A DNA stretch of 64,000 nucleotides from Sphingobium sp. 66-54. Its GTDB lineage: Bacteria > Pseudomonadota > Alphaproteobacteria > Sphingomonadales > Sphingomonadaceae. Position numbers and translations under genes: made by a program. Under the pieces are notes generated by a model that worked only from the letters and a program-made list of their open reading frames with translations, was not told the DNA's origin and ran no database searches. Below, piece after piece: positions 3,779 to 61,215 of the stretch; position 1 is the stretch's first letter, and every line of letters starts with the position of its first letter. The stretch covers positions 6,446 to 70,445 of the forward strand of contig MKWI01000019.1 of NCBI GenBank assembly GCA_001899715.1. Reading direction: 5' to 3'.

Positions 3779-6139
3779 TCAGGTCGGCGGTATAGCCGCG
3801 TCGATCTCCCGCTTTATCCGCTCGATCTGCTCCGTCATGGCCGGCAGGCGCGGCGCTTCCTCATCGAGAATGGCAAGGAATGCCTCCCGCTTCCAGGCCC
3901 TTGGGCGGGTGGGATCGGACAAGGCATCGCGCGGCATGGTGGAGAGCAATATGTCGATCAGCCGATCAGCACCATGCAGGCGGCCCCAGAGATAGTCGTT
4001 CTCCCGATAGGCGCGGCTGAAGAAGGCGCCGAAGCTGTTGAACTCGATCCCGCGCAACGTCGCCGCCGCGCCGCCCGAGCGGATAGCCACGGCATCGTCG
4101 GGCGAGATGCGATCGACCTTGATCGGGTCATATTCGTCCAACCCTTCGCCCTGAAGCAGCGTCAGCGTCGCGACATCGTAGAAGGGAAAGCCCAGATAGG
4201 TCTTGAGCAAGGCGCGGCGTTCGTCCGGCTCGATGAGCATGACGGCGGCGGCAAAACGCGCGTCGACCATATCGTCGAGTGTCCGCAGGTCGCGCAGCCG
4301 CGTGATGGTTTCGAGCATGCCGGTCAAGTCGTTGAGTGCCCGGCGGGCCTGCTCGCGGGCCGTGGCATTGAACCAGCCGGCCTGCTGCCGCTCCGAATAG
4401 AGCGTGATCGCCTCATAGAGCATTTCCAGCATGGTCTCGCGGCCGGCGCGGCGGGGTTCGTCATCCTCGTCCGCGCGCGCGGCGGCGGAGAGGCGCCGGG
4501 TGAGGAAGCGCAGGCGGCGGACACGGAAGGCGATGTCGTGGCTACGGTAGAAGGCGATCAGTTCCTCGCTGGCGCCATCGGCGGTGCCGTGGCCGACGCG
4601 ATCTACGCCATTGGCGTGCAGGTGGGTGCGTAGAGCCCGCAGCAGTTTCTCCTTGGCCATGGGTGAAGTCTCGCCGGCGAGCGCGGCGATTAGCGTCGCT
4701 AAGTCTTCGACGATGCCGGAATATTTGAGATAGCCATAAGCCGGATAGGCATAGCCGGCGGCCTGCGCGGCTTTCTGCTGCATCCGACCCCGCCAGTGGG
4801 CAAGACGGCGCGCGGTGGGGCGGATCAGGAAGGGCGTGCGGCCGAGCGTGCGGTCGACCGTCCGCTCGATGTCCGGCCGCAGCGCTTCGAAGATATGCTG
4901 CATGCGGCGGATGCGCGTCGAGCGCTCGGTAATCAACTCCAGATTGTCACGGATCGGCTGCTCGCGCGGAATCTCGCTGACCGCGCCGAAGATGGTGCGG
5001 AAGAAGCCAGGGACCAGCCCCTCGCCGGTGATCCGGTGGCGCAGTGGCGAGGTGAGGCGGAAGCCTCCTACGCTGGGAGACGGCTCGATATAGACAAAGC
5101 GGCGGTCGACCGGGCGGCGCGCGGGCCGGTCGCGCAGCGCGTCGATTGCCTGAGCGAAGGGCGCATTGGCCAGCACCGATCCGTCGATGAGCACCGCGTC
5201 CTCCGCGTTGCCGGCCTCGCTATGCTGGGGCAGCACTCTGCGCAGGAAGGTATCACGCCCCGCCCACGGCCGCTTGCGCTCGGCAAGCACCGCGTCCAGC
5301 TCGCGCACGGTGAAGGGCGGGAAGGCGCCGGGGAAGCTGGCGGTTGCGCGCGCCGCGAAAACCAGTTCGCTCGGATCGGCAAGCTGACGCGGGCGGATGC
5401 CGCGCGCATGGAAGCTGATCGTCAGGCGATGCTCTGTCTCGGTGATCTCGGGCGGGCTGTTGAGGCGCAGCACCTCCTCATGGCCGGTGAAATCGGTGGC
5501 GGTCACGTAGAGATCGAGCGGGTGATTGTCCGGCAGCAGCGGCTCGCCCGGTTCGCCCCCGGCCATGGCGTCGAACGCGTCGAGAATCAGCCGGGAGAAG
5601 CCCTTGCCGCCGAAGGGTGGGGCGAACCAGCGGGCGCGCACGAAGTTGGAAAGCTTGCGGCGGACCTCCTCGCGCATCTCCGGCGCCACCGTGCGGTCGA
5701 CCGTATCGCCGCGCCGGCGCAGCAGCAGCCAGAGGAACGGCGCCGCCCAGAATTTGGTGAAGCGCGAGAGCGGGCGCGCGTCCGGGTCGAGCAATATGTC
5801 GGCATCGGCGCAGCGCAACCACAGGTCGGTCAGCGGGTCGAGCGACTGGCCGGTCTCGATGGCGTGGGCAAGGAACACGCCGTTGATGCCACCCGCGCTG
5901 GCGCCCGCGATGATATCCGGCAGCACACGCAGCTTGAGGTTGGCCTCAGCCCGGCAGGCGGCGAGGATCTTGCCGTAGACCGTATCGTCGGGGCCGGCCG
6001 GCTGCTCCCCATCGTGGCGGCAGAAGTCCCGGCTTGCGCGTGCAAGGCGCCATATTTCCTTGGTGACGCCGTGCATATAGACGGCGAGGCTCACGCCACC
6101 GTAGCAAACGAGCGCAAGCCTCAGTTCCTTCTCCCGCAT
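3779..6139 (-). CDS. Patatin-like protein (DUF3376-type C-terminus)
   Basis: YGGVSLAVY, GASAGGIN nucleophile elbow, DGSVL, NDYLWGRL. Confidence 0.88.
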   Translation of the reverse strand: MREKELRLALVCYGGVSLAVYMHGVTKEIWRLARASRDFCRHDGEQPAGPDDTVYGKILAACRAEANLKLRVLPDIIAGASAGGINGVFLAHAIETGQSLDPLTDLWLRCADADILLDPDARPLSRFTKFWAAPFLWLLLRRRGDTVDRTVAPEMREEVRRKLSNFVRARWFAPPFGGKGFSRLILDAFDAMAGGEPGEPLLPDNHPLDLYVTATDFTGHEEVLRLNSPPEITETEHRLTISFHARGIRPRQLADPSELVFAARATASFPGAFPPFTVRELDAVLAERKRPWAGRDTFLRRVLPQHSEAGNAEDAVLIDGSVLANAPFAQAIDALRDRPARRPVDRRFVYIEPSPSVGGFRLTSPLRHRITGEGLVPGFFRTIFGAVSEIPREQPIRDNLELITERSTRIRRMQHIFEALRPDIERTVDRTLGRTPFLIRPTARRLAHWRGRMQQKAAQAAGYAYPAYGYLKYSGIVEDLATLIAALAGETSPMAKEKLLRALRTHLHANGVDRVGHGTADGASEELIAFYRSHDIAFRVRRLRFLTRRLSAAARADEDDEPRRAGRETMLEMLYEAITLYSERQQAGWFNATAREQARRALNDLTGMLETITRLRDLRTLDDMVDARFAAAVMLIEPDERRALLKTYLGFPFYDVATLTLLQGEGLDEYDPIKVDRISPDDAVAIRSGGAAATLRGIEFNSFGAFFSRAYRENDYLWGRLHGADRLIDILLSTMPRDALSDPTRPRAWKREAFLAILDEEAPRLPAMTEQIERIKREIDAAIPPT

Positions 6140-6942: not shown

Positions 6943-6957
6943 GTTCGTGGTTCGTTC
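6943..6957. promoter_or_regulatory. LexA (SOS) box upstream of radA
   Basis: GTTC-GTGGTTC-GTTC, an exact GTTC-N7-GTTC, 16 nt before the radA ATG. Confidence 0.6.
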
Positions 6958-6973
6958 TGATATGGGGAGCGGC

Positions 6974-8341
6974 ATGGCCAAGGTCAAACGCCGTTTTGTC
7001 TGCCAGAGTTGTGGATCGGTCGCCTCGCGTTGGCAGGGGCAGTGCGACGATTGCGGCGAATGGAACACTCTGATCGAGGAAGCGCCGCCAACGGCCTTCT
7101 CGGTCAAGCATGATCTACAGGATGGCGGCCGGCCGATCGAGTTGGTCGGGCTGGACAGCGACGGCGCGCTGCCCGCGCGGCTCGGCACCGGGCTGGCGGA
7201 GTTCGACCGGGCGCTGGGCGGCGGGCTGGTCGCGGGATCGGCCACGCTGATCGGCGGCGATCCGGGGATCGGCAAGTCGACCCTGCTGTTGCAGGCGGCG
7301 GCGCGGCTGGCGCGCGCGGGCCGGCAGGTGGTCTATGTAAGCGGCGAGGAGGCGGCCGATCAGGTGCGGTTGCGCGCCCGCCGGCTCGGCCTTGGCGATG
7401 CGCCGGTGCAGCTCGCCAGCGCCACCTCGGTGCGGGACATATTGACGACGCTGGGGCAGGCGGCAGGGACGGACCTGCTGGTGATCGACTCGATCCAGAC
7501 GATGCACAGCGACATGATCGAAGGCGCGCCCGGCACGGTGAGCCAGGTGCGGGCGTCGGCGCAGGAGTTGATCCGCTTCGCCAAGAAAGGCGGGGCGGCG
7601 CTGATCCTCGTCGGCCATGTCACCAAAGACGGTTCCATCGCCGGGCCGCGCGTGCTGGAACATATGGTCGATACGGTGCTGAGCTTCGAGGGTGAGCGCA
7701 GCCACCAGTATCGCATCCTGCGCGCAATCAAGAACCGCTTTGGCGGCACCGACGAGATCGGCGTGTTCGCCATGGCGGAAGAAGGCTTGCAGGAGGTCGG
7801 CAACCCTTCTGCCCTGTTCCTCACCGACCGCGACGAGCGCGTGCCGGGCGCGGCGGTATTCCCGGCACTGGAAGGGACGCGGCCGGTGCTGGTCGAGATC
7901 CAGGCGCTCACCGTGCGGCTGGCCAGCGGTGCCACGCCCCGGCGCGCGGTAGTCGGTTGGGATAGCGGCCGGCTCGCCATGATTCTCGCGGTGTTGGAGG
8001 CGCGCTGCGGGCTCAGTTTCGCGAGCTGCGAGGTCTATCTCAACGTAGCGGGCGGCTATCGCTTGCAAGACCCCGCGGCCGATCTGGCGGTCGCTGGCGC
8101 GCTCATCTCCGCGTTGTCCGAGCGGCCGGTACCCAAGGACGCGGTGCTGCTCGGCGAGATCGCGCTCTCCGGCGAGATCCGGCCGGTCGCCCATGCCGGG
8201 CTGCGGCTGCGTGAGGCGGCCAAGCTGGGCTTCCAGCGCGCCCTGCTTCCTGCCTCCAGCGCGAAGCTGGCGAACGGGCTGGCGACCTCCGGCTTCACCC
8301 GGTTGAGCGAGCTTGTTGACCATATGCTCGGGCGCGATTAG
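6974..8341 (+). CDS. radA: DNA repair protein RadA/Sms
   Basis: C4 zinc finger, Walker A GGDPGIGKS, KNRFG motif, Lon-like C-terminus. Confidence 0.97.
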   Translation: MAKVKRRFVCQSCGSVASRWQGQCDDCGEWNTLIEEAPPTAFSVKHDLQDGGRPIELVGLDSDGALPARLGTGLAEFDRALGGGLVAGSATLIGGDPGIGKSTLLLQAAARLARAGRQVVYVSGEEAADQVRLRARRLGLGDAPVQLASATSVRDILTTLGQAAGTDLLVIDSIQTMHSDMIEGAPGTVSQVRASAQELIRFAKKGGAALILVGHVTKDGSIAGPRVLEHMVDTVLSFEGERSHQYRILRAIKNRFGGTDEIGVFAMAEEGLQEVGNPSALFLTDRDERVPGAAVFPALEGTRPVLVEIQALTVRLASGATPRRAVVGWDSGRLAMILAVLEARCGLSFASCEVYLNVAGGYRLQDPAADLAVAGALISALSERPVPKDAVLLGEIALSGEIRPVAHAGLRLREAAKLGFQRALLPASSAKLANGLATSGFTRLSELVDHMLGRD

Positions 8342-23262: not shown

Positions 23263-24297
23263 CTATGCGCGTTTCCGCTTTTTCTTTGGCGTGAGCAGCG
23301 CTGAAACGCGGTCGAAAGCGGTTGTCTGGCCGATAGGTTTCACGTGCGCGTAGCGCATCGTGACGCTGACACTGCTATGAGCGAGGGCCTCGCAGATATC
23401 GGCCAGATCGGCACCGTTCTGGCGCGCCCAGCTACCAAAGGTATGGCGCAGATCGTGGAAGCGAAAGTCCACCATTTTCGCATCCTTTAGGGCGGCGGCC
23501 CAGCGCCGGCGAAAATTGGTGGTGTCAAAGACAGGCCCGGTGCGCCCATCGGCGGGCGTGCGAGCCAGCGCGGCTCGCAGCGGGGCGCCAAAGCGTGCGA
23601 TGATAGGCTTGCGCCCTTTACTGCGCGGTATGGTGATGGTGCCGCCGGCAAGGTCGACCTGATGCCATTTCATCGCAAGGATGTTGCCGCGCCGCAGGCC
23701 CGTGGTGACGGCAGTGAGGATGATCGGCCGCAGCGATGCATGGGCGGCGGTCATCAGGCGCTCAAACTCTTCGGCGGCGGCGAAGCGCACGCGGTGCTCC
23801 GGCTCCGGGACGCGCAGGCGCTTGAAGGCGAGGGCGGGAAAGGGCTGACCGTGCACGTCGCGCATGTGGTTGAGCGCGGCCTGGAGATAGGCGAGATCGC
23901 GATTGACTGTCTGCGCGGCCACAGGCCGGCCGGGCCTGTCATCGAGCGGGATATTCCCGCCGCGCCTCCGAGCCCGAAAATCCAGTATCATCGCGTTGGT
24001 GATGTCCATCACCAAAGTGTCGGCCCCGAACACTTCGGTCATACGTTCTAGCTGGCGAAATATCTGGTCGCCGCTTTCAGTGTGTTTCGCGTGGTCGTTC
24101 CAATAGGCCCCGAAGCAATCGCGGACGCGCCAGCCTTCGCGCGGTGGGCCGGACTTGCTTAGTCGGAGATATATCTCGGCTTCGGCGATGCGGGCCGCGC
24201 GTTCTTCCGTCGCGCCCGTGCTTCCTCGAAATCGACGAGTCCCGATGGTGATTGAATACCACCAGTAGGGTGACTTTGCGCGGCGATAGAGTGGCAT
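23263..24297 (-). CDS. int: Phage tyrosine integrase
   Basis: TTGLRRG, K, FHDLRHTFGSW, AHSSVSVTMRY catalytic residues; adjacent to attL. Confidence 0.95.
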   Translation of the reverse strand: MPLYRRAKSPYWWYSITIGTRRFRGSTGATEERAARIAEAEIYLRLSKSGPPREGWRVRDCFGAYWNDHAKHTESGDQIFRQLERMTEVFGADTLVMDITNAMILDFRARRRGGNIPLDDRPGRPVAAQTVNRDLAYLQAALNHMRDVHGQPFPALAFKRLRVPEPEHRVRFAAAEEFERLMTAAHASLRPIILTAVTTGLRRGNILAMKWHQVDLAGGTITIPRSKGRKPIIARFGAPLRAALARTPADGRTGPVFDTTNFRRRWAAALKDAKMVDFRFHDLRHTFGSWARQNGADLADICEALAHSSVSVTMRYAHVKPIGQTTAFDRVSALLTPKKKRKRA

Positions 24298-24470
24298 TGA
24301 CGGCGGCTTTCGATAAGGCGGCGAAGGTCCGCCAGATCATAGAGCGGCTTTCGACCGATCCGAACATACGGCAGCTCACCGTCAGCGCGCAACTTGCGCA
24401 GGAAGCGGGGGCTACAGCGGAGCGTTCGCGCCGCTTCGCTTTCAGTCAGAAGTTTGACCGGCTCGCTCAT
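24159..24470 (-). CDS. xis: Excisionase-like HTH protein
   Basis: LLTESEAARTLRCS..LPYVRIGRKPLYD MerR-like HTH; overlaps the int start. Confidence 0.8.
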   Translation of the reverse strand: MSEPVKLLTESEAARTLRCSPRFLRKLRADGELPYVRIGRKPLYDLADLRRLIESRRQCHSIAAQSHPTGGIQSPSGLVDFEEARARRKNARPASPKPRYISD

Positions 24471-25156
24471 GTCTCAATGTCGCGCGGCGGGATCCAGTAG
24501 ATCGGAGCGAAGGGCTGGCCGCGATCGTCAACGTGGGGTCGCCGGCGCTTGTCCCACAGCACCCACATGTAATCGATCTTGCCGCGCGCATATGCCTTGT
24601 CGCCGAGCGCCTCGATCTGGTCGCCGGGCGGCATCGAGGGGCGCTCGCACAGGATCCACACGCCCGCCGGCGTCAGCTCGCTGAACAGGCGATAGCGGCC
24701 TTGGCTGGCGAGCCATTTGAGCGGGAGAAGCGTGGCGACCTGATGGGTTGCAATCTCCAGTGCCCGGCGGGCGAAGCGTTCTGCAAGACCAAAGGCCATT
24801 TGCCCATTCTGGTAAGAGAAGGGTGGATTGCAGATGATCGACAAATCCCCGCCGCCTTCGAGCAAGCATCGCTGATTGCCAAGGAAATCATGCGCGCCGA
24901 GGAAGTGCGGCGCGCCGCGATCGAACATATCCATGCCGAATGCGGCGATGCCCCGGCCGCGTAACGCGCGGACGATGTTGCCTTGGCCGCAGCAGGGATC
25001 GAGCACCGTGACATCGTGGTCTATCGGCGCGGAATCGAGCAGCCGTTCGGTCACCCATTCCTGCTCGACATACCAATCCCAGGGATGGCGTTTGACCTTC
25101 TTGCCAGCGCGACGGCGGCGCGATTGCGAAACGCCGGTGGAGAGTTCGCCGCTCAT
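24467..25156 (-). CDS. Amino (N6A/N4C) DNA methyltransferase-like protein
   Basis: DPCCGQG (motif I) and NPPF (motif IV). Confidence 0.75.
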   Translation of the reverse strand: MSGELSTGVSQSRRRRAGKKVKRHPWDWYVEQEWVTERLLDSAPIDHDVTVLDPCCGQGNIVRALRGRGIAAFGMDMFDRGAPHFLGAHDFLGNQRCLLEGGGDLSIICNPPFSYQNGQMAFGLAERFARRALEIATHQVATLLPLKWLASQGRYRLFSELTPAGVWILCERPSMPPGDQIEALGDKAYARGKIDYMWVLWDKRRRPHVDDRGQPFAPIYWIPPRDIET

Positions 25157-25653
25157 AGCCCGACCCCTTCCGGCGTGGGCCAGTTCCACAAGCCTTGCTT
25201 TCCGCGCATGGGGATCGGTTCCGGCCATCGCTCGATGTCGAGCATCGGCCAGCCCCAGTTGGCATGGTCATCCCGGTCGCTGTCGTTGGCACGCGGCACG
25301 CCGAATTGCTCGGCGACGGCTGTGCCGATCACCGGCTCGCCCACTACGGCGGTGCCGATGCCGGCGGCCATCGGGAGTTCACCCTCAAGCGCGCGATTGA
25401 GCACCGGGATCGCGCGTTCCGGAATGAGGCAAGTCTCTGCGGCGGCCCGCGCAATATCGTCCGATCTGTCCCGTAAGGCCAAGACCACCAGAAGATCATT
25501 GACTTCATCCCGGTCGATCCTCCGCGCGGCTGCGTGGATCACGATGCGCTGGCCAATCAGCGAGCGAGGAACGCGCCACCCGCGAAATTCGTAGGGCTTC
25601 GCGCCTGCAACGATGAGCGACGCCCACGGCTGCCAGATGGTGAGCGTCTTCAT
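25153..25653 (-). CDS. ASCH domain protein
   Basis: LTIWQPWASLIVAGAKPYEFRGW, IVIHAA, P.PMRGKQGLW. Confidence 0.85.
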   Translation of the reverse strand: MKTLTIWQPWASLIVAGAKPYEFRGWRVPRSLIGQRIVIHAAARRIDRDEVNDLLVVLALRDRSDDIARAAAETCLIPERAIPVLNRALEGELPMAAGIGTAVVGEPVIGTAVAEQFGVPRANDSDRDDHANWGWPMLDIERWPEPIPMRGKQGLWNWPTPEGVGL

Positions 25654-26468
25654 GCCGCCAACCTTTCCATATCCGTGAGAAGCTGCTCGCCCCACTGTTT
25701 GGCCATCGCGGCTGCGAGGCCGGGAAAGGTTTCGCTGCGCCGGCGTGCACGATCCGGACCGGGCGGTTCGCGATGCACGCGGCTCCATGCTTTATGTTCG
25801 GCTGTCCCCGGCCGAGGCGGCGTGAGCCTGTTGGTTGGGTGCAGATCGGGCAGGCCGATCAATTCCAACCCTGTCGCCTTGAAATATGGATCGCCGAACC
25901 ACCATGGCTGGACGAACTGGGTCCGGCCGCGCCGCGTCATCTCGATCGCATAGCGATGCATGACCGGGTTTTCGATCGCGCGGCGCTGGATCTGGCGGGC
26001 GTCGCGAAGTGTGCGATAGAAGTCTGCGGCCTCGCCCAGTTCGGCCCAGCGCTGGGGATCTGGCCCATTTACCTTCTTCCCGCCGATATAGAGCCATTTC
26101 ACGCCGGAGTTGCAGAGGATCGTGCAGGGCGGGTGCATCACGGCGAGTAAGTCCCAGCCACCATCGAGATGGTTGCGAACATCATCGCGGATATGGCGGT
26201 TACTTCCATCGTCTGCCGGTTCGGTGTCACATGACCATGCGTCAAAGCCGCGCGCGATAAACGCCCGCCGAACAACGCCGCTACGTTCGCAGCGCCGGGG
26301 TTCGCCGGCGGTGAGCAGGTCCCAATCCTGCTCGGCCTCATCCATCGAGGCGCAGGCGCGGCCGTGCATGCCGCACAGGATGCATTCGGCGCGGAAAGCG
26401 AGCGAGCCTGTTTTCTGGTCCTTTTCGATCATGAACGCGGGCAGATGGTCGCAGGGGCGGTCACTCAT
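25650..26468 (-). CDS. Phage C5-cytosine methyltransferase-like protein with Cys-rich N-terminal domain
   Basis: CERSGVVRRAF..WSCD, HPPC catalytic motif, IENP, QPWWFG, RSETFPG. Confidence 0.7.
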   Translation of the reverse strand: MSDRPCDHLPAFMIEKDQKTGSLAFRAECILCGMHGRACASMDEAEQDWDLLTAGEPRRCERSGVVRRAFIARGFDAWSCDTEPADDGSNRHIRDDVRNHLDGGWDLLAVMHPPCTILCNSGVKWLYIGGKKVNGPDPQRWAELGEAADFYRTLRDARQIQRRAIENPVMHRYAIEMTRRGRTQFVQPWWFGDPYFKATGLELIGLPDLHPTNRLTPPRPGTAEHKAWSRVHREPPGPDRARRRSETFPGLAAAMAKQWGEQLLTDMERLAA

Positions 26469-29490: not shown

Positions 29491-29639
29491 AGCTGGATCA
29501 CTCCGTTGTAAACGAGGGTTAGGGCGGCGCCGATCATGGCGACGAAGGCCAGCACGCCGGCGGTTTCGGCAAGGCCGGGAATTTCGTGGCGGTGGCGGCA
29601 GAACAGGCAGGCGCATCGCCCGCGCGCATGGTCACGCAT
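29487..29639 (-). CDS. 50-aa Cys/His plus TM peptide (not in ORF track)
   Basis: MRDHARGRCACLFCRHRHEIPGLAETAGVLAFVAMIGAALTLVYNGVIQL; overlaps both neighbours. Confidence 0.6.
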   Translation of the reverse strand: MRDHARGRCACLFCRHRHEIPGLAETAGVLAFVAMIGAALTLVYNGVIQL

Positions 29640-32310
29640 GGTCGCTTCTCCGGTTGGTTGTGGGGGTTTTCGGCCGCTCGAAAATCCAGCAATGCTGGGA
29701 CTGGCCGCTGATCGTATTGACGCTGTCCGCGCGGATGAACCGGCGGGATTTCGAGCCTTTCAGGTGACGTTTGAGGTCCTGCTCGTGGGGCGGGACGAGG
29801 TTGCGGGCGCGGCACCGTTCCTCGAAATGCGGCAGCGAAACGGCGATCAGTTCGTCATCCTTGCGGTGGCGGTTGATCCTGTGCTCGGGGGGCGTGTTCT
29901 CGTCCTCGCGACCTTCGATGTAATCGAACAGTTCCCAGAAGCGCGCCACCACGGGATGATCGGCGGATAGCGCCGAGCGGCGCTCGACGGCCATGGCGTA
30001 GATGCGTTCGATGGTTGTGGCCCGCGCGTCGTCGGGGACGGGCACGATGGCGCGCAGCGCATCGAGGCCGGCGGCGAGCTGGGCGTGGTTCTTGACGATG
30101 CGGACGTTACGGATCTGCCCGCGCCGGTCCATCTCCGCCTCATGCTCGGCATAAGCGGCGCGGAACGCCTTGAGATAATCCGCCTCGCGCCGGACCATGT
30201 GGACCATGAAGCCGGAGACATCCTCGATCGGCCAGTGCTCCAGCTTGGCGGCGGCGATCTTGGTTTGCGTGGTGAAGCCGGCCTTGTCGAAATGGAGCTG
30301 CATGATACGCTCCAGCACGGCCGGGCTGGCGTCTACCGGGTTGTTCTGCTCGATGACGATGGCGCCACGGAAAGGCGGCTCATAGGTCTCGTTGCCGCCG
30401 TTGCGCACGCCGCGCGAGCGCACCGAGCGGCCGTTATAGGCGGTTTTCAGTTCTTCCCATTCGAACCGGCGGCTGTGGCTGGCCTTGTCGTCGTCGCGGT
30501 CGCCCTCCAGCAACACCACGGGAAGGTTGCCGACCTTGCCGAGATTGCGCGCGATGGCGGCGCTGGTGGCCTTTTGCGGGTCAAAGCCCTCATAATCGCC
30601 GCGACCCGCCGTTTTCCACAGGAACTCGAACAGCGTCGATTTGCCGGTGCCGGGCAGGCCGGTAGCCTCCAGAAAGGGGAGGCTCTTGTGCAGCGCGCGG
30701 ATCTGCTCCGCGAAGAAGCTCATCACCCAGAAGCTGGTGGCGATCAGCCCGTTGGTGCCGAACGCCGTCCAGACGACAGGCAGCCATTCGGTATCGAGCC
30801 GATCGGGATCATAGTCGATCGACAGCATCCGCTCGCTGGTGCGCAGCTTGAGCGACATCTTGCCGAAATCGAAATAATCTTCGTCGTTGATGCGCTGGAC
30901 GCGGCCTTGCCGCACGGCGATTTCGCCGAACACCCACGCCTCATGGTCCCGGCTGTAGCCGGTGAAATCGAGCGTCTCCACTTCGCGGATACCCCTTTTG
31001 CCTTTTTGAAGATCAATGATTTTTTCGAGCTGGCGGGTGCTGCCCACCCACTGCGCGCCGGGCGCCACGCCGAGCAGGCGCTTCTTGAACTCCGGCCCGG
31101 CCGCCATCGCCGCCGTGGAGAAAGCCGCCTTGGCCGGCCGGCGGCCGGAGGGCGTATCGACCCGGAGATAATAATGGCTCTCGTCCGTGGCCGCGTCGGT
31201 CTGAAAATAGAGGATACGGAAGGCGCAGCTCGCGATTTCGTCGATATCGGCGCAGGCGCGCGCGGCGGCCTTTTCCGTCACGCCCTCGGCCGTCATCACC
31301 TCGGCGATGCGGGCCCGGTTGAAGCTGGCCCACCAGGTGCGGCTGTCGTGGACGAACGAGAAGCTGCCCCACTTCTTGCGATCGAAGATCAGACACGCCT
31401 TTTCAGTGGCGTTGGGCGCGATCATCACCTCGCCGTGCCAGAGATATTCTTCCAGATCGGCGGGGGTCAGCCGCCCGCGCTGATGCAGGTCGTTCCAATC
31501 TACCTTGTCGCCTTCGCCTTCCGGCAGCGGCGTGGCGGCAGTGGCGAGCCATCCCTCGTCCCGCGCGCGCTTGACGAACTCGATGCTCTTTTCCCGCCCG
31601 GCCTTGCCGACATCGAAGGCGAAGATGAGCAGCGGCCCGGCGCCGATCTCCAGCTCCGCCATGGTGCGGCGCAGCTCGGCCAGCGCGATCTCGGGATAAT
31701 TGTAGCAGGACATGGCGGAGGCGGAGACCTCGCCATTGCTGGTGAGGGCGAAGGAATCGAAGATGCCCTCCGCGATCCAGATGCGCGGCGCGCGTGCCAG
31801 CGCCTCCATGGTGACGGCCGGCGCCGTCCACCACTGGCCGCCATATTCCTTGCCCCACGCAAACCGCGCCTTCCGGTCGAACCGGCCGGGCTGGTCGATC
31901 AGCCGTTCCCACCAGCTCCCGCCGGGCAGCGGAAAGCGCACCGTGGCGCTGGCCTGGCCCGTCTCCCGATCGACATAATTTTCTTGGCTGTAGCTGCCGC
32001 GCAGCCCGCGCAGATCGAAGCCGCGCGCGTGGGAGAGGTAGGCGTCGGCGGCTGCGTTGGGGTTGGCCTCATCCGCCTGATAGCGTTTCGACCAATTGTC
32101 GAAAATATCGGAATAGCGCTCTTTAACATGCTGTTCCCAACCGCATTTATTCGCCCGGTCGCAGCGCAGCACCCAGGGCGATTCCGCATTGGTGAACAGC
32201 TCTTTGCTGCCGCATTGCGGGCATTTGCCTTTGCGCAGCCAGCCACCGCTCGCCACGAATTTGAATTCGGCGAGGCGCTCCAGCACTTCTTTTCGAATAT
32301 CGTCGCGCAT
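29632..32310 (-). CDS. Zn-finger/TOPRIM primase-helicase replication protein
   Basis: CPQCG..C.R.NKCG; AEGIFD; AFDVG (TOPRIM); GLPGTGKS Walker A. Confidence 0.88.
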   Translation of the reverse strand: MRDDIRKEVLERLAEFKFVASGGWLRKGKCPQCGSKELFTNAESPWVLRCDRANKCGWEQHVKERYSDIFDNWSKRYQADEANPNAAADAYLSHARGFDLRGLRGSYSQENYVDRETGQASATVRFPLPGGSWWERLIDQPGRFDRKARFAWGKEYGGQWWTAPAVTMEALARAPRIWIAEGIFDSFALTSNGEVSASAMSCYNYPEIALAELRRTMAELEIGAGPLLIFAFDVGKAGREKSIEFVKRARDEGWLATAATPLPEGEGDKVDWNDLHQRGRLTPADLEEYLWHGEVMIAPNATEKACLIFDRKKWGSFSFVHDSRTWWASFNRARIAEVMTAEGVTEKAAARACADIDEIASCAFRILYFQTDAATDESHYYLRVDTPSGRRPAKAAFSTAAMAAGPEFKKRLLGVAPGAQWVGSTRQLEKIIDLQKGKRGIREVETLDFTGYSRDHEAWVFGEIAVRQGRVQRINDEDYFDFGKMSLKLRTSERMLSIDYDPDRLDTEWLPVVWTAFGTNGLIATSFWVMSFFAEQIRALHKSLPFLEATGLPGTGKSTLFEFLWKTAGRGDYEGFDPQKATSAAIARNLGKVGNLPVVLLEGDRDDDKASHSRRFEWEELKTAYNGRSVRSRGVRNGGNETYEPPFRGAIVIEQNNPVDASPAVLERIMQLHFDKAGFTTQTKIAAAKLEHWPIEDVSGFMVHMVRREADYLKAFRAAYAEHEAEMDRRGQIRNVRIVKNHAQLAAGLDALRAIVPVPDDARATTIERIYAMAVERRSALSADHPVVARFWELFDYIEGREDENTPPEHRINRHRKDDELIAVSLPHFEERCRARNLVPPHEQDLKRHLKGSKSRRFIRADSVNTISGQSQHCWIFERPKTPTTNRRSDHA

Positions 32311-32400: not shown

Positions 32401-32763
32401 CTAGGCCGGTGGATCGTCGCCGCCATCCCGACACAGGTCGAGCAGCGACATCTGGCCATATTCATGGCCGGGGGGCTTGGTCTCCTCGATGTGCGGCAGG
32501 CGAAATTCAGGTGAGATGCCAGACGGCGAAATGACCGCGACGATGGAGAGCATCGACTTCCACGTCATCGAGCAGGCGATGTTGCCGCAGTAATAATAAA
32601 GCTGGCGGACCGTGGGCGTGAGTTCTTCGGACGTGCGCACGAAGGAGCGCGATCCGCAGACCGGGCATTTCATCATGGGCATGCGCCCCCGGTCGCGAAA
32701 TGCGCGCGATGCCGTCATGGGGGCCCAAACGGTGCTGTGGTCAAACTGAACGGCGCTGTTCAT
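32401..32763 (-). CDS. ogr: Ogr/Delta-like zinc-finger late activator
   Basis: CPVCGS.S.VRTS..L..YYYCGNIACS.TW..I..ISPSG; start uncertain. Confidence 0.88.
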   Translation of the reverse strand: MNSAVQFDHSTVWAPMTASRAFRDRGRMPMMKCPVCGSRSFVRTSEELTPTVRQLYYYCGNIACSMTWKSMLSIVAVISPSGISPEFRLPHIEETKPPGHEYGQMSLLDLCRDGGDDPPA

Positions 32764-33226
32764 CCTGCCCCCCAAGATAATCCGAACCGCCCAGGCGCGC
32801 GGCCATGGCGGTGAGCGATGCCACGCCCTCCTCGATTTCGAGTAGCGCGCGGGTGAGCAGGCGCCGGTCGCCGTGCCGCTCGATCGCGGCCATGGCGGCG
32901 GCAATCGCCTCGCCCGTCTCGCGCGCGGCATCGCCGGCGGCGGCGATCATCTCGCCCAGCGACGCGCGGTTTTCGTCACCGCCCATTTCGAGCTGGAGCG
33001 CGTAGCATTCGAGCAGCGGCGCCCCCGCGCCCCCGGCGCGCTGATAGGCCGCATCGAGCCGCCGCGCATCGCGCATGCTGATCTCGCGCTCGATATCGGG
33101 GTCGGAGAGCTTGCGCACCGCGCTCTCGCTCTTGCCGAGGATCTGCGCGCAGCCATCCATGCCGATCTGCCCGGCGATGCGCATCAGCGCGCGTTCAAAG
33201 GTGAGGGGCTGCCGCTCCTTCGTCAC
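32741..33226 (-). CDS. CII-like phage regulatory protein
   Basis: N-terminal HTH-like GKSESAVRKLSDPD; position downstream of cro. Confidence 0.55.
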   Translation of the reverse strand: MTKERQPLTFERALMRIAGQIGMDGCAQILGKSESAVRKLSDPDIEREISMRDARRLDAAYQRAGGAGAPLLECYALQLEMGGDENRASLGEMIAAAGDAARETGEAIAAAMAAIERHGDRRLLTRALLEIEEGVASLTAMAARLGGSDYLGGQDEQRRSV

Positions 33227-33701: not shown

Positions 33702-34063
33702 GCGGCGGGCCTTTCGATGGAGAGAGCAGGGCCGGGCAAACAGGCGTCGGCGCCGATCTGGCGCAGCATGCGCGCCGCCGTCTTGCCGCAGCGTCTGGCC
33801 GGCATGGTGACGATCATCATGGGCCGGTGCGCCCGCCCGGCGGCGATCGCCGCGCGGGCGGAGGCGGTGAGCGCAATCGGCTGATCCGCCGCGCTCTGGC
33901 GCAGATTGCCGAGATTGCGCTGGGTGGAGATCGCCTTGCGAATGTCCACGCCGCGCGCGGGCACCGCCTCGCGCAGCGCCGGCATCGCGATCGACCCGCC
34001 AGCATCGAACGCGGCATTGAGGATGAGCAACTCCAGCGGGTGCTGGTCGGTGGGATGCGTCAT
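33698..34063 (-). CDS. Phage hypothetical protein (possible winged helix)
   Basis: Coupled to cro by an ATGA overlap. Confidence 0.6.
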   Translation of the reverse strand: MTHPTDQHPLELLILNAAFDAGGSIAMPALREAVPARGVDIRKAISTQRNLGNLRQSAADQPIALTASARAAIAAGRAHRPMMIVTMPARRCGKTAARMLRQIGADACLPGPALSIERPAA

Positions 34064-34383
34064 GCCACCGCGCTCCCGTCCAAAACGGGCTGCCGATTGG
34101 ACTGGCGCCCGAAGCTGCGCGCCGACATGATCGGCGCGCAGTCCGTGGGAGGCTCGGGATCGGTGGGAAACGTGGAATGGTCGATGGGGTAAATGTCGGG
34201 GCGAAGCAGGTGGCGGGAGACGCCCGTGGCTGCCTCGACCTTGAGGACTTGCTCGGCGGGCAGCCGCTTGGAACTCTGTATCCACTTCCACACGGCGGTG
34301 CCGGAAACCTCGCAGATGCGTGCCAGCGCGGCGTTGCTGCCGGCGGCGTCGCGCGCTGCGAGCAGGGCTTGGTAGGGTGTCAT
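34060..34383 (-). CDS. cro: Cro-like (YdaS-type) HTH regulator
   Basis: AALARICEVSGTAVWKW..VEAATGVSRHLLRPDIYP. Confidence 0.88.
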   Translation of the reverse strand: MTPYQALLAARDAAGSNAALARICEVSGTAVWKWIQSSKRLPAEQVLKVEAATGVSRHLLRPDIYPIDHSTFPTDPEPPTDCAPIMSARSFGRQSNRQPVLDGSAVA

Positions 34384-34388
34384 TGCGT

Positions 34389-34469
34389 CAACCATGGTGG
34401 CGATATTGACAACCAAAGTTACTACAGTCAACCACCAAAGTTGATACTGTCGCGCATCAACCAAAGTTG
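34389..34469. promoter_or_regulatory. cI/cro operator array, four sites CAAC-N4-GTTG
   Basis: CAACCATGGTGG 34389, CAACCAAAGTTA 34410, CCACCAAAGTTG 34432, CAACCAAAGTTG 34458. Confidence 0.8.
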
Positions 34470-34481
34470 CGACAATAAGCC

Positions 34482-35000
34482 ATGATCCGGGGAGACAGGA
34501 TTCGTGAGCGATTAAACGCGCTTGACCGCTCGCAGGGCTGGCTTGCGCGTGAGATAGAGGTGTCGCCCCAGGCGATCAGCAAGATGGTGTCTGGCAAGGT
34601 TGGCGATTCGCCGAAGCTCTATCAGATCGCCCGCGCGCTGGAGACGAGCGTAGAATTTCTCATCGGCGAGAGCGACGACGCATCACCCCAACGAGTGGCC
34701 GAGGGGCGCGGTGGCTATCGTGCCGAACCGCTCGCGAAGACCGGCCGGGTTCAATATGTGTCCATGGCAGTGGCGATGCCTAATGAAAATGCCCTTGCTG
34801 ATATGATGGAAAGCCTGCTGGCGCTCGTGCCTGAAAATGCAACGCGGGTTGAAGCCGCGCGAATTCTCGCTCAGCGGCTGCCAGCTGGCTTTGCAGCGAT
34901 CGGACCTGTTCAGCCCGCTGCGGGCACGGAGACAATGACTGCATCCGCAAAGTCTGCTCGATCTCCCGCCACAGGTCGTTCCTCGCGGCAACGATCGTAG
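34482..35000 (+). CDS. cI: CI-like XRE repressor lacking an S24 peptidase domain
   Basis: N-terminal XRE HTH (SQGWLAREIEVSPQAISKM..IARALETSVEFL); divergent from cro; no GDSM/K catalytic motif. Confidence 0.85.
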   Translation: MIRGDRIRERLNALDRSQGWLAREIEVSPQAISKMVSGKVGDSPKLYQIARALETSVEFLIGESDDASPQRVAEGRGGYRAEPLAKTGRVQYVSMAVAMPNENALADMMESLLALVPENATRVEAARILAQRLPAGFAAIGPVQPAAGTETMTASAKSARSPATGRSSRQRS

Positions 35001-35070
35001 CGCATCGCACGCTGCACCGTTCGCAGTTCAATTCGCAACCAGGTGTCAGCCTCATAGCCTGCGCACTCAC
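34780..35070 (-). CDS. Cys-rich 96-aa protein, candidate SOS-induced antirepressor
   Basis: GTG start 7 nt after GAGG; CxxxCxxCxxxC motif then a coiled coil; LexA box immediately upstream. Confidence 0.6.
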   Translation of the reverse strand: MSAQAMRLTPGCELNCERCSVRCATIVAARNDLWREIEQTLRMQSLSPCPQRAEQVRSLQSQLAAAEREFARLQPALHFQARAPAGFPSYQQGHFH

Positions 35071-35085
35071 TTCTTCCCCTCCCTT

Positions 35086-35100
35086 GTTCTCTATACGTTC
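35086..35100 (-). promoter_or_regulatory. LexA box overlapping a -10-like TATAGA
   Basis: GAAC-GTATAGA-GAAC on the minus strand (exact GAAC-N7-GAAC). Confidence 0.75.
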
Positions 35101-35201
35101 CATCTTTGGCTAATGCGGGAGGAGTAGGAAAGTCGTAAACGCGCTGGCAATTCGCGGGGGGAAATGGCAGCGGTCTGGCGTGAGTAGGGGAGGGGTGCAC
35201 G

Positions 35202-35384
35202 ATGAAGTTTGGCGATTGGCCGTGTCCACAGTGCCGCAAGCCATCGAGCCTGCTGGCGACGCGTTGCCCGCACTGTACGGTTGTCTGGACCAAGGATGAG
35301 CGTCGTGGCCGCATCAAGGAATTCTGGCTAGCCGTTGTCTGCTTGATCGTGATCGTGGTTGCTTTGGCATTCTGGCTGTCCTAA
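35202..35384 (+). CDS. Zinc-ribbon plus C-terminal TM protein, 60 aa
   Basis: CPQC..CPHC, hydrophobic tail; GGAGG RBS. Confidence 0.75.
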   Translation: MKFGDWPCPQCRKPSSLLATRCPHCTVVWTKDERRGRIKEFWLAVVCLIVIVVALAFWLS

Positions 35385-35390
35385 ATAATC

Positions 35391-35437
35391 GTATATACAA
35401 TTAGCTCTTGCGGTCTCCTAGCTAATTGTATATACAA
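35391..35437. promoter_or_regulatory. brnTA operator/promoter inverted repeat
   Basis: Perfect 16-bp IR GTATATACAATTAGCT-N13-AGCTAATTGTATATAC; TTGTATATACAA palindrome 5 nt before the ATG. Confidence 0.8.
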
Positions 35438-35442
35438 TCGGC

Positions 35443-35691
35443 ATGGATATCGAGTTCGATCCCGCGAAAGACGCTCTCAACATCGACAAGCATGGCGTTT
35501 CGCTCGCCCGCTTCGTGGATATGGACGTGGCGTCGATCGTCGAGGATGATCGGTTCGATGAACCCCGCCTGCGCATCTACGGGCAGCTTGACGGCATCTG
35601 GCACTGCGCCGCCGTCACGATCCGGGCCACGGCATATCGTGTCATCAGCCTGCGCAGGGCACACGCAAAGGAGATCAGGCGCCATGTCTGA
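35443..35691 (+). CDS. brnT: BrnT family toxin
   Basis: EFDPAKDALNIDKHGVSL, DEPR..G, RVISLRRA..KE. Confidence 0.92.
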   Translation: MDIEFDPAKDALNIDKHGVSLARFVDMDVASIVEDDRFDEPRLRIYGQLDGIWHCAAVTIRATAYRVISLRRAHAKEIRRHV

Positions 35692-35935
35692 CAAGCCGGT
35701 CAAGTTCGACCATGACAATCCCGAGTGGACCAAGGAGGATTTTGCGCGCGCGAAACCGCTTTCGGCCTATCCCGATCTGGCGGCAGCCATGAAGAAAGCG
35801 CGCGGTGCGCAGAAGGCGCCGACGAAGAAGGCCGTCTCGATCCGGCTCGATGCCGATCTGGTGGATCGCCTGCGCGCGTCCGGCCGGGGCTGGCAGGGGC
35901 GGGTGAATGAGCTGCTGCGCCGGGCGCTGGATTAG
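35684..35935 (+). CDS. brnA: BrnA family antitoxin
   Basis: DNPEWT.EDFARA, K.AVSIRLDADLVD..GRGWQGRVNE.L. Confidence 0.92.
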   Translation: MSDKPVKFDHDNPEWTKEDFARAKPLSAYPDLAAAMKKARGAQKAPTKKAVSIRLDADLVDRLRASGRGWQGRVNELLRRALD

Positions 35936-60276: not shown

Positions 60277-60420
60277 CCAGCGGGGGAGCGGGCGCTGCAA
60301 CGCCCGCCCCAGGCAACATCTCCTTGTCTCAAGCCATGAGGGTGCATGCGCCCTCGACTCGCCCGCTCACCCTGCAGGGCGGCGAGAACGTCTAGTGAAC
60401 GAAAGCAAGGAGTCGAGTCT

Positions 60421-61215
60421 GTGTTATTGGAACCCGTGGCACCCGTTCGCCCTATCGCCGCATGGATCGGCGGTAAGCGCAAGCTGGCCAAGCGCCTGGT
60501 CGCGCGCATCAACGCGATCGAGCATGACAGCTATGTCGAGCCGTTTGTGGGCATGGGCGGCGTCTTCCTGCGCCGCGATCATCGCCCGCCCTGCGAGGTC
60601 ATCAACGACTGGAGCGAGGATGTGTCGACGCTCTTTCGCGTGATCCAGCGCCATTTCGTTGCCTTCACCGAAATGGTCCGCTTCCAGATCAGTTCACGCG
60701 CGAATTTCGAGAAGCTGGTGGCGACGGATCCGCGCACCCTGACCGATCTGGAACGCTCGGCGCGCTTCCTCTACCTGCAGCGCCTCGCCTTCGGCGGGAT
60801 GGTCTCGGTAAGGCGGTTCGGAACATCGCCGGGGGTGGGGGCGCGCTTTGATGTGACCAAGGTCGCTCCGATGATCGAAGCGCTTCATGAGCGCCTGGCC
60901 GGCGTCACTATTGAGCGGCTGCCATGGCAGTCACTCATTGCGCGATGGGATCGGCCCGGCACACTTTTCTATCTCGATCCACCCTATCATGGCTCCGAGC
61001 GAGATTATGGCGCGGACATGTTCGGCCGCGACCAGTTCGCGGAGATGGCGGCTCAACTCGCCAGCATCCGTGGCCGCTTCATCATGAGCATCAACGACCA
61101 TCCCGAGATCCGCGAGCTGTTCGCGCGATTCTCGATCGAGGAAGCCGAAACCAGTTACACGGTCGGCGGCCAGGCCAAGGCCAAGACTGTCCGCGAGCTG
61201 ATTATCACGGGCTGA
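60421..61215 (+). CDS. D12-class DNA adenine methylase (Dam-like)
   Basis: WIGGK, YVEPFVGMGGVF, FYLDPPY; GTG start after AAGGAG. Confidence 0.9.
   Translation: MLLEPVAPVRPIAAWIGGKRKLAKRLVARINAIEHDSYVEPFVGMGGVFLRRDHRPPCEVINDWSEDVSTLFRVIQRHFVAFTEMVRFQISSRANFEKLVATDPRTLTDLERSARFLYLQRLAFGGMVSVRRFGTSPGVGARFDVTKVAPMIEALHERLAGVTIERLPWQSLIARWDRPGTLFYLDPPYHGSERDYGADMFGRDQFAEMAAQLASIRGRFIMSINDHPEIRELFARFSIEEAETSYTVGGQAKAKTVRELIITG

Follow-up and report, generated by a model that had tools for sequence, protein, structure and literature searches.

The small protein Epsilon, encoded by satellite P4, derepresses a P2-family prophage by binding the non-cleavable P2 C repressor. In Bacillus subtilis, SinR is an XRE-type helix-turn-helix (HTH) repressor that oligomerises through a small helical domain at its C-terminus; this domain is bound by SinI, a small helical antagonist. 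The antirepressor genes for Tum of phage 186, AntC of N15 and GfoA/GfhA/GftA of the Gifsy phages are small, repressed by LexA and located outside the immunity region (PMC3121763), while transcription factor-small open reading frame (TF-smORF) modules of plasmid-like phages place a small family-less protein, which inactivates cI without proteolysis, next to a dedicated regulator (Silpe et al. 2023, PMC10432266). Here we analysed the immunity region of a P2-like prophage of about 38 kb in Sphingobium sp. 66-54 (contig MKWI01000019.1), contained in a stretch of 64,000 nucleotides (nt), referred to as the window herein. In this prophage the 3' end of the repressor gene, cI, is overlapped by a convergent open reading frame of 96 codons, ORF96, which is preceded by a LexA-box-like repeat (Table 1). 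The original prediction from the DNA alone had read this arrangement as an SOS switch, in which a non-cleavable CI is opposed by a LexA-controlled antirepressor. Our comparisons support this interpretation, and we favour, with moderate confidence, a role for ORF96 as a LexA-repressed antirepressor that would act on the C-terminal domain (CTD) of CI.

As predicted, CI combines an XRE-type HTH with the absence of an S24 autopeptidase, since HTH_3 was its sole Pfam match and no Peptidase_S24 domain was found. An AlphaFold2 (AF2) model built with a 28-sequence alignment places a disordered linker between the HTH and a two-helix CTD, and fold matches to this model include SinR, among them the SinR-SinI complex 1b0n. 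A 96%-identical variant of the locus (Logan contig L001) carries a 36-nt in-frame deletion in the linker (~34700-34735) and has ORF96 and the box intact, which fits a linker that serves as a flexible tether. The minus-strand ORF96 and its strong Shine-Dalgarno sequence lie directly downstream of cI, where they had been described. Its four clustered cysteines fall just beyond cI, whose stop codon ends at 35000; the first 23 codons are outside cI and the remaining 221 nt run antisense to the cI 3' end, again as originally read. In a mechanical list of open reading frames the frame stays open to an ATG at 35103 (107 amino acids). Since relatives align from the GTG position and the extension would place the box inside coding sequence, the longer version is not the conserved one.

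An exhaustive phmmer search with ORF96 against 1.84 billion representative sequences returned 26 representative clusters, with a typical length of 96 amino acids. This exhaustive search was required, as a word-index protein search with ORF96 gave no matches; a first scan of contigs with narrow peptide patterns also found nothing, and the broad family alignment was too diverse to seed further scans. Pattern scans of viral, genomic and metagenomic collections, confirmed by tblastn, yielded about 90 loci. The family comprises about 70 distinct members, which reside in P2-like prophages of Sphingomonadales; carriers include Sphingobium species (among them the cultured S. abikonense NBRC 16140 and S. 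aromaticivastans DSM 105181), Croceibacterium xixiisoli (strain S36, also cultured) and a replicon of Sphingomonas parapaucimobilis in which the annotation pipeline PGAP left the homologue unannotated. Counts of boxes, start codons and linkage refer to 69 distinct members, and those of upstream regions and recovered repressors to 67. A purine run resembling a Shine-Dalgarno sequence precedes 50 of the 69 homologues. The gene escapes annotation pipelines, with a GTG or TTG start codon in 55 of the 69 and an overlap with cI in every one. The relationship extends to a contig with a 50%-identical CI (L002), which has the same antisense 96-codon frame, the same four cysteines and GAACGTAACAGGAAC ahead of it.

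All 67 repressors recovered opposite ORF96 homologues carry the same CTD, which forms a single cluster with the signature PSEaAL.DMF.SLLaLVP..AT..EAA.ILAQRLP.GFAAIGP. Their DNA-binding domains belong to at least four unrelated types, and the N-terminal domain of the window CI occurs in 7 of 69 loci versus 67 of 69 for the CTD. None of the 67 has an S24 domain; where a profile of S24 homologues matched them, it aligned to the HTH part only. In every one of these loci ORF96 and cI overlap convergently, by ~155-245 nt overall and in nearly all by 206-245 nt. The shared CTD is the more likely target of ORF96, given that ORF96 keeps its similarity whichever of the unrelated DNA-binding domains the repressor has.

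The same position is occupied differently in sibling phages. The repressor P0003 (contig L095) is 74% identical to the window CI over the HTH and linker and ends in an S24 domain. At the nucleotide level L095 and the window are 80-88% identical over cro, the operators and CI residues 1-86, and again from the BrnTA operator onward and in gpD; in place of window positions 34741-35390 (650 nt), L095 has 431 nt that encode S24. The P2-like synteny is shared by three more S24-type siblings, and the family profile found no ORF96 homologue in any of the four (positive controls at 1e-37). Sequence comparison shows that one position of this phage backbone is naturally filled by either the ORF96 cassette or the S24 domain. 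We regard this alternation as the strongest indirect argument that the cassette couples CI to a damage signal.

In the scheme that we propose, the cassette would have three parts: the two-helix CTD in place of S24, ORF96 antisense across the end of cI, and a host LexA operator ahead of the ORF96 ribosome-binding site. In the lysogen, LexA on the box would silence ORF96 while CI occupies its three CAACCAAAGTTG operators. DNA damage would activate RecA and lead to self-cleavage of LexA and synthesis of ORF96, whose helical hairpin may then bind the CI CTD and break the oligomerisation or cooperativity needed for repression. Derepression of the Cro-side early operon, and with it prophage induction, would follow, and convergent transcription into cI may reinforce the process. 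LexA on the box, contact between ORF96 and CI, the CTD as the target and a bound metal are the elements of this scheme that we infer. The likely target, the swappable cassette and a boxless minority lineage, which is described below, go beyond the original prediction.

A role away from CI is the alternative that fares best, although we consider it improbable. ORF96 could be an SOS-induced accessory protein that, for example, modulates RecA or LexA in the manner of DinI or GIL01 gp7, inhibits division, or serves in defence or exclusion; it would then sit on the cI end only through overprinting. The interval from cI to gpD is a cargo hot-spot, holding BrnTA, ORF60, SNase and DUF2846 genes in relatives; the prophage has a second gene behind a LexA-type box, encoding a methyltransferase; and the overlap alone would yield the linkage to the CTD. 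Cargo, however, varies by locus, while ORF96 is constantly paired with the CTD (67 of 69 loci), and the cassette exactly replaces S24 in otherwise near-identical phages. S24-less phages would then be left with no apparent route to induction, and the early-region reading frames of the prophage that were scanned include no further recognisable antirepressor.

The antirepressor model also places ORF96 under LexA control. The GAAC-N7-GAAC box is exact in 63 of the 69 distinct members and has one mismatch in a further three, mostly 15-20 nt before the start. Across the 67 distinct upstream regions, information reaches ~2 bits at the eight half-site positions versus 0.1-0.3 in the flanks, with the spacer consensus GAATCAG, in which the A at position 3 is conserved, and the extended consensus A-GAAC-GAAtCag-GAAC-A. 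GTTC-N7-GTTC is the published alphaproteobacterial LexA motif (PMC8565304, PMC9578287, bioRxiv 2025.01.26.634973). The window has three exact sites of this form versus 1.06 expected, with three or more in 12 of 100 shuffles; as the count alone is not significant, the case rests on placement and on conservation. Each of the three sites is followed, 4-20 nt further on, by a gene start. One precedes host radA and fits the motif as a host SOS operator. Another, 20 nt before the start of a gene for a D12-class N6-adenine DNA methyltransferase, has the same box, Shine-Dalgarno and start layout as ORF96, and this gene is probably a second LexA-controlled gene of the prophage. The box is common to phages with at least four unrelated repressor DNA-binding domains and differs in sequence from the CI operators, and is therefore not an immunity-specific site. 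We consider it highly likely that the box ahead of ORF96 is a LexA operator. The exact LexA box claimed in the original prediction is upheld, but the -10-like TATAGA read within it is not: it is not kept in the family spacer, and transcription from there would yield an RNA that lacks the Shine-Dalgarno sequence. The box was also considered as a CI operator and ruled out, since the CI repeats CAACCAAAGTTG occur only between cI and cro and none is near ORF96.

It is decidedly unlikely, in our view, that something other than LexA, be it a different host regulator or a conserved phage protein, binds GAAC-N7-GAAC and makes the cassette answer a signal other than damage. In favour of such a factor, a further conserved motif, CTTTCCTAC, keeps a constant spacing to the box on its upstream side, group-2 members of the family use a divergent GerE/LuxR-type regulator gene as a different input, the window count of boxes is not significant by itself, and the match to the LexA motif is one of sequence. 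Against it, the half-sites and spacing exactly equal the published motif, the same motif stands ahead of radA, and the box is independent of immunity type and replaces a RecA-responsive S24 module.

The motif CTTTCCTAC is in register in most of the 67 upstream regions and is the only other element shared there; it is a possible promoter element for ORF96. Two further candidate elements were rejected: a minus-strand terminator-like match (34860-34842) is no better than expected by chance and falls within ORF96, and sequestration of the Shine-Dalgarno sequence, for which CUCCUCCC could pair with GGGAGGGG in the window, is ruled out by a mean z-score of 0.07 over 67 leaders. Three side observations concern the same region. 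In about half of the 67 loci the consensus spacer contains GANTC, the CcrM methylation site of Alphaproteobacteria; the window box is without it. Many loci (L073, L018 and L037 among them) have CTTGTCCACAAGGAAATTTCC, two short palindromes, ~60 nt upstream of the box, in the interval that separates ORF96 from the divergent gene; the window has no copy. Finally, an S24-type sibling (L096, 5044-5538) has a cargo reading frame (start 5098) between cI and gpD, with GAACTATTCGGGAAC at 5044-5058, ~40 nt upstream.

We examined coding constraint as the ratio of non-synonymous to synonymous substitution rates (dN/dS), taken as the median NG86 value across pairs of 61 gap-free members and numbered by ORF96 codons. 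In the ORF96 frame, dN/dS is 0.30 over codons 2-29, which lie largely past the cI stop so that the CI frame is not applicable, and 0.35 over codons 30-54, versus 1.61 in the CI frame. The relation is reversed over codons 73-95 (1.58 in the ORF96 frame versus 0.29 in the CI frame). Between them, codons 55-72 give 1.06 versus 0.47, with dN and dS low in both frames. Raw counts of synonymous and non-synonymous changes agree with this pattern. G+C at third codon positions falls in the CI frame from ~0.8 to ~0.45 past ~34785 and rises in the ORF96 frame to 0.6-0.8 across 34875-35054, a switch that coincides with the dN/dS reversal. The DNA of the dual-coding core is nearly invariant and lies inside the sole stretch that is similar at the nucleotide level to the distant relative L002. 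The frame-specific dN/dS indicates that ORF96 is protein-coding and constrained over ~72 codons (residues 1-72, 34855-35070). By the same measure, residues 73-96 (34783-34854) are an unconstrained by-product of the CTD coding sequence, the last ~28 CI codons are a by-product of ORF96, and ~18 codons are truly dual-coding. ORF96 is almost certainly a real gene.

These results bear on the view that the main effector is antisense RNA, or collision of RNA polymerases with cI transcription, and that the protein is secondary. The convergent overlap in 67 of 67 loci would be in keeping with it, but strong purifying selection acts on codons 2-54, most of which face the unconstrained tail of CI or fall beyond cI, invariant cysteines are not expected from an RNA-only role, and no conserved RNA structure was found in the 67 leaders. 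As selection acts on the protein, antisense or collision effects, though possible, are not the main function, and we hold this view to be very improbable. That ORF96 is a chance antisense frame of a GC-rich genome behind a chance match to the box has next to no probability. In its favour, antisense reading frames are common in the window, gene callers mostly miss ORF96 and the word-based search was empty, but it is refuted by family-wide conservation, a dN/dS of 0.3, invariant cysteines and a conserved box.

In a 24-member family alignment the four cysteines are the only invariant columns, and P10, RDDLWR and AERxFxRxRP are strongly conserved besides. With the box exact in 63 of 69 members and S24 in 0 of 67 paired repressors, the co-conservation that the original prediction had put forward as a check is strongly borne out, and the four S24-type siblings have no ORF96. 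AF2 predicts a helical hairpin (helices 21-46 and 50-73, pLDDT >90) with a disordered tail, and confidence is low over the cysteine region, as expected for a metal site. The invariant C-x3-C-x2-C-x3-C pattern points to a Zn or Fe-S site. ORF96 had no family match in Pfam, PHROGs or NCBIfam, and tblastn against 50,697 phage records gave a single match, to a member of its own family. No match in the Protein Data Bank (PDB) was significant in a sequence search (best E 0.011), and a fold search was non-specific, returning generic helical hairpins only. Zinc-binding anti-sigma (ZAS) or radical S-adenosylmethionine-like cysteine motifs have an H/C-x3-C-x2-C signature within a homologous domain; for the ORF96 pattern, no homology to either family was found in Pfam or PDB. 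No similarity of ORF96 to Tum/DinI-related or Ant/KilAC families was found in Pfam, PHROGs, NCBIfam or the phage tblastn, which at the level of sequence is in line with the original view that the protein is unrelated to Tum and AntC. Judged by these searches, the protein family is new, and so is the arrangement of the genes; the regulatory logic is of a known kind.

Several points weigh against a LexA-repressed antirepressor that acts on the CTD. The physical overlap partly forces the linkage of ORF96 to the CTD, which makes this linkage weaker evidence of interaction than it would be for separate genes. ORF96 lies inside the immunity region and antisense over the repressor 3' end, unlike the known LexA-controlled antirepressor genes. 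The ORF96 and CTD family alignments are not similar (hhalign probability 0.2%), which excludes SinI-style mimicry by homology. A sigma-70 scan found no promoter for ORF96, and CTTTCCTAC does not fit a sigma-70 promoter or a structured RNA. Sequencing runs containing the window are DNA metagenomes only, with no RNA runs for the window or for the Sphingobium abikonense locus, and no characterisation of LexA in Sphingomonadales was found in the searchable literature. In addition, one lineage (L012-L015) keeps the reading frame, the Cys4 motif and the CTD but is without the box, and LexA control is therefore not universal; P0064, grouped with this lineage by sequence similarity, also keeps the reading frame. 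In the group-2 relatives a divergent GerE/LuxR-type HTH gene starts 11 nt from the ORF96 homologue, whose promoter must therefore lie inside that gene. The GerE/LuxR-type regulator may be an alternative input, and the arrangement suggests that the antirepressor is able to respond to inputs besides LexA. A more far-reaching reading, which we regard as doubtful, is that of a portable unit of repressor tail and antisense antirepressor, overprinted on the cI 3' end and combined with unrelated DNA-binding domains and with LexA or GerE/LuxR inputs, in which the Cys4 cluster would act as a second sensor (of redox state, iron or zinc) and induction would need both SOS and a permissive state.

The window has a G+C content of 65.7%. 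Within the prophage, early genes on the minus strand are followed by the immunity region, BrnT/BrnA and then gpD, gpU and the tape measure protein gene (minus strand); P2-type capsid, terminase and portal genes are also present, and the D12 methyltransferase gene lies at the right end. The Cro/Apl-like gene keeps its synteny with cI in relatives. ORF60 was considered as part of the module and ruled out: although it lies inside the swapped 650-nt segment, it occurs in only 1 of 69 related loci and is therefore cargo. Ahead of BrnT/BrnA, a 19-nt inverted repeat, ATCGTATATACAATTAGCT / AGCTAATTGTATATACAAT (35388-35438), is kept in the sibling phage L095 and is probably the BrnT/BrnA operator. Two more DNA-methyltransferase-like genes (phrog_799 and phrog_757) stand beside the integrase in the early region (24467-26468), so that with the D12 gene the prophage encodes three methyltransferases.

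Table 1. Positions of the features discussed, in window coordinates unless a contig is named (aa, amino acids; SD, Shine-Dalgarno sequence).
Feature	Position	Strand	Remarks
ORF96, putative LexA-controlled antirepressor gene	34780-35070	-	96 aa, starts MSAQAMRLTPGCELNCERCSVRC; GTG start at 35070-35068
SD of ORF96, AAGGGAGGGG	35076-35085	-	5 nt ahead of GTG; read from sequence
LexA-box-like direct repeat GAAC-GTATAGA-GAAC, GTTCTCTATACGTTC	35086-35100	-	15 nt ahead of ORF96 start; coding strand GAACGTATAGAGAAC
Conserved motif CTTTCCTAC	35124-35132	-	23 nt upstream of box; single occurrence in window
Cysteine cluster C12-x3-C16-x2-C19-x3-C23	35002-35037	-	Presumed metal site (Zn or Fe-S)
Dual-coding core	34855-34908	both	ORF96 aa 55-72 (QVRSLQSQLAAAEREFAR) opposite conserved CI stretch ARILAQRLPAGFAAIGPV
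cI repressor gene	34482-35000	+	172 aa
CI HTH	34482-34667	+	aa 1-62; Pfam HTH_3
CI disordered linker		+	aa 64-92; AF2 pLDDT <50
CI two-helix CTD	34764-34907	+	aa ~95-142; AF2 helices 102-113, 122-139
CI unconstrained tail	34914-34997	+	aa 145-172; dN/dS 1.6 in CI frame; AF2 pLDDT ~35
Three CI-operator-like direct repeats CAACCAAAGTT(G/A)	34410, 34432, 34458 (span 34410-34469)	+	cI-cro intergenic region
Cro/Apl-like gene	34060-34383	-	First gene of early leftward operon, divergent from cI; YdaS-type HTH (Pfam YdaS_toxin 5e-15, phrog_35)
Box GTTCGTGGTTCGTTC ahead of host radA	6943-6957	+	radA ATG 6962 or 6974 to 8341; box 4-16 nt before start
Box GAACGTCTAGTGAAC ahead of D12-class methyltransferase gene	60386-60400	+	Followed by SD AAGGAG; gene GTG 60421-61215
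GerE/LuxR-type HTH gene, group-2 relatives	L012 3509-4318; L015 4440-5306	divergent	11 nt from start of ORF96 homologue
Integrase	23263-24297	-	
Primase	29632-32310	-	
Ogr/Delta zinc-finger gene	inside ORF 32401-32931	-	Pfam match aa 88-133
ORF60	35202-35384		Divergent from ORF96; CxxC...CxxC zinc ribbon and C-terminal transmembrane helix
BrnT/BrnA toxin-antitoxin pair	35443-35691, 35684-35935	+	

If the antirepressor model is correct, it would explain for the first time how a widespread group of P2-like prophages of the Sphingomonadales, bacteria of soil, plants and bioremediation, is induced, and the few LexA-controlled antirepressors known would be joined by a new protein family. We found no literature on such a cassette in this order. 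The exchange of S24 and cassette on one backbone would amount to a natural experiment with two ways to couple a repressor to DNA damage. ORF96 and cI also represent a clean antisense overlap of two functional genes, in which constraint is handed from one frame to the other over ~18 shared codons. The first 23 ORF96 codons are clear of cI in the window, which opens the hypothesis to genetic tests that leave the repressor untouched.

Compared with the systems outlined at the outset, P4 Epsilon differs in being satellite-encoded and not LexA-controlled, and the phage collection search gave no similarity to ORF96. The TF-smORF modules and Qtip of VP882 resemble the ORF96 module in their small unannotated protein and, in L012-L015, in the divergent GerE/LuxR-type gene. 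In the modules, a divergent transcription-factor gene activates the small reading frame; in the window, the divergent neighbour is a 60-codon zinc-ribbon/transmembrane cargo gene, and a LexA box is present. They are also SOS-independent add-ons to a cI that is still proteolysed on damage, whereas the ORF96 module replaces S24 and mostly carries a LexA box. Repressors of the lambda/P22 type, with S24, occur in the siblings with the same N-terminal domain, operators and backbone, and their Ser-Lys peptidase is absent from the window CI and the 67 paired repressors. The arrangement of SinR and SinI recurs, as architecture only, in the AF2 models of the CI CTD and ORF96; SinI differs in being homologous to the SinR CTD and in having neither a Cys cluster nor LexA control. 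A further likeness is to 186, also a temperate phage of the P2 family, whose CI has no autocleavage domain. With Tum, AntC and the Gifsy antirepressors, ORF96 shares a small size and an operator ahead of the gene that matches the host LexA motif, and the proposed mechanism follows their logic. Tum has a DinI-like half where ORF96 has a Cys4 cluster and a helical hairpin, and ORF96 would further depart from the 186 type in its binding target, the CI CTD.

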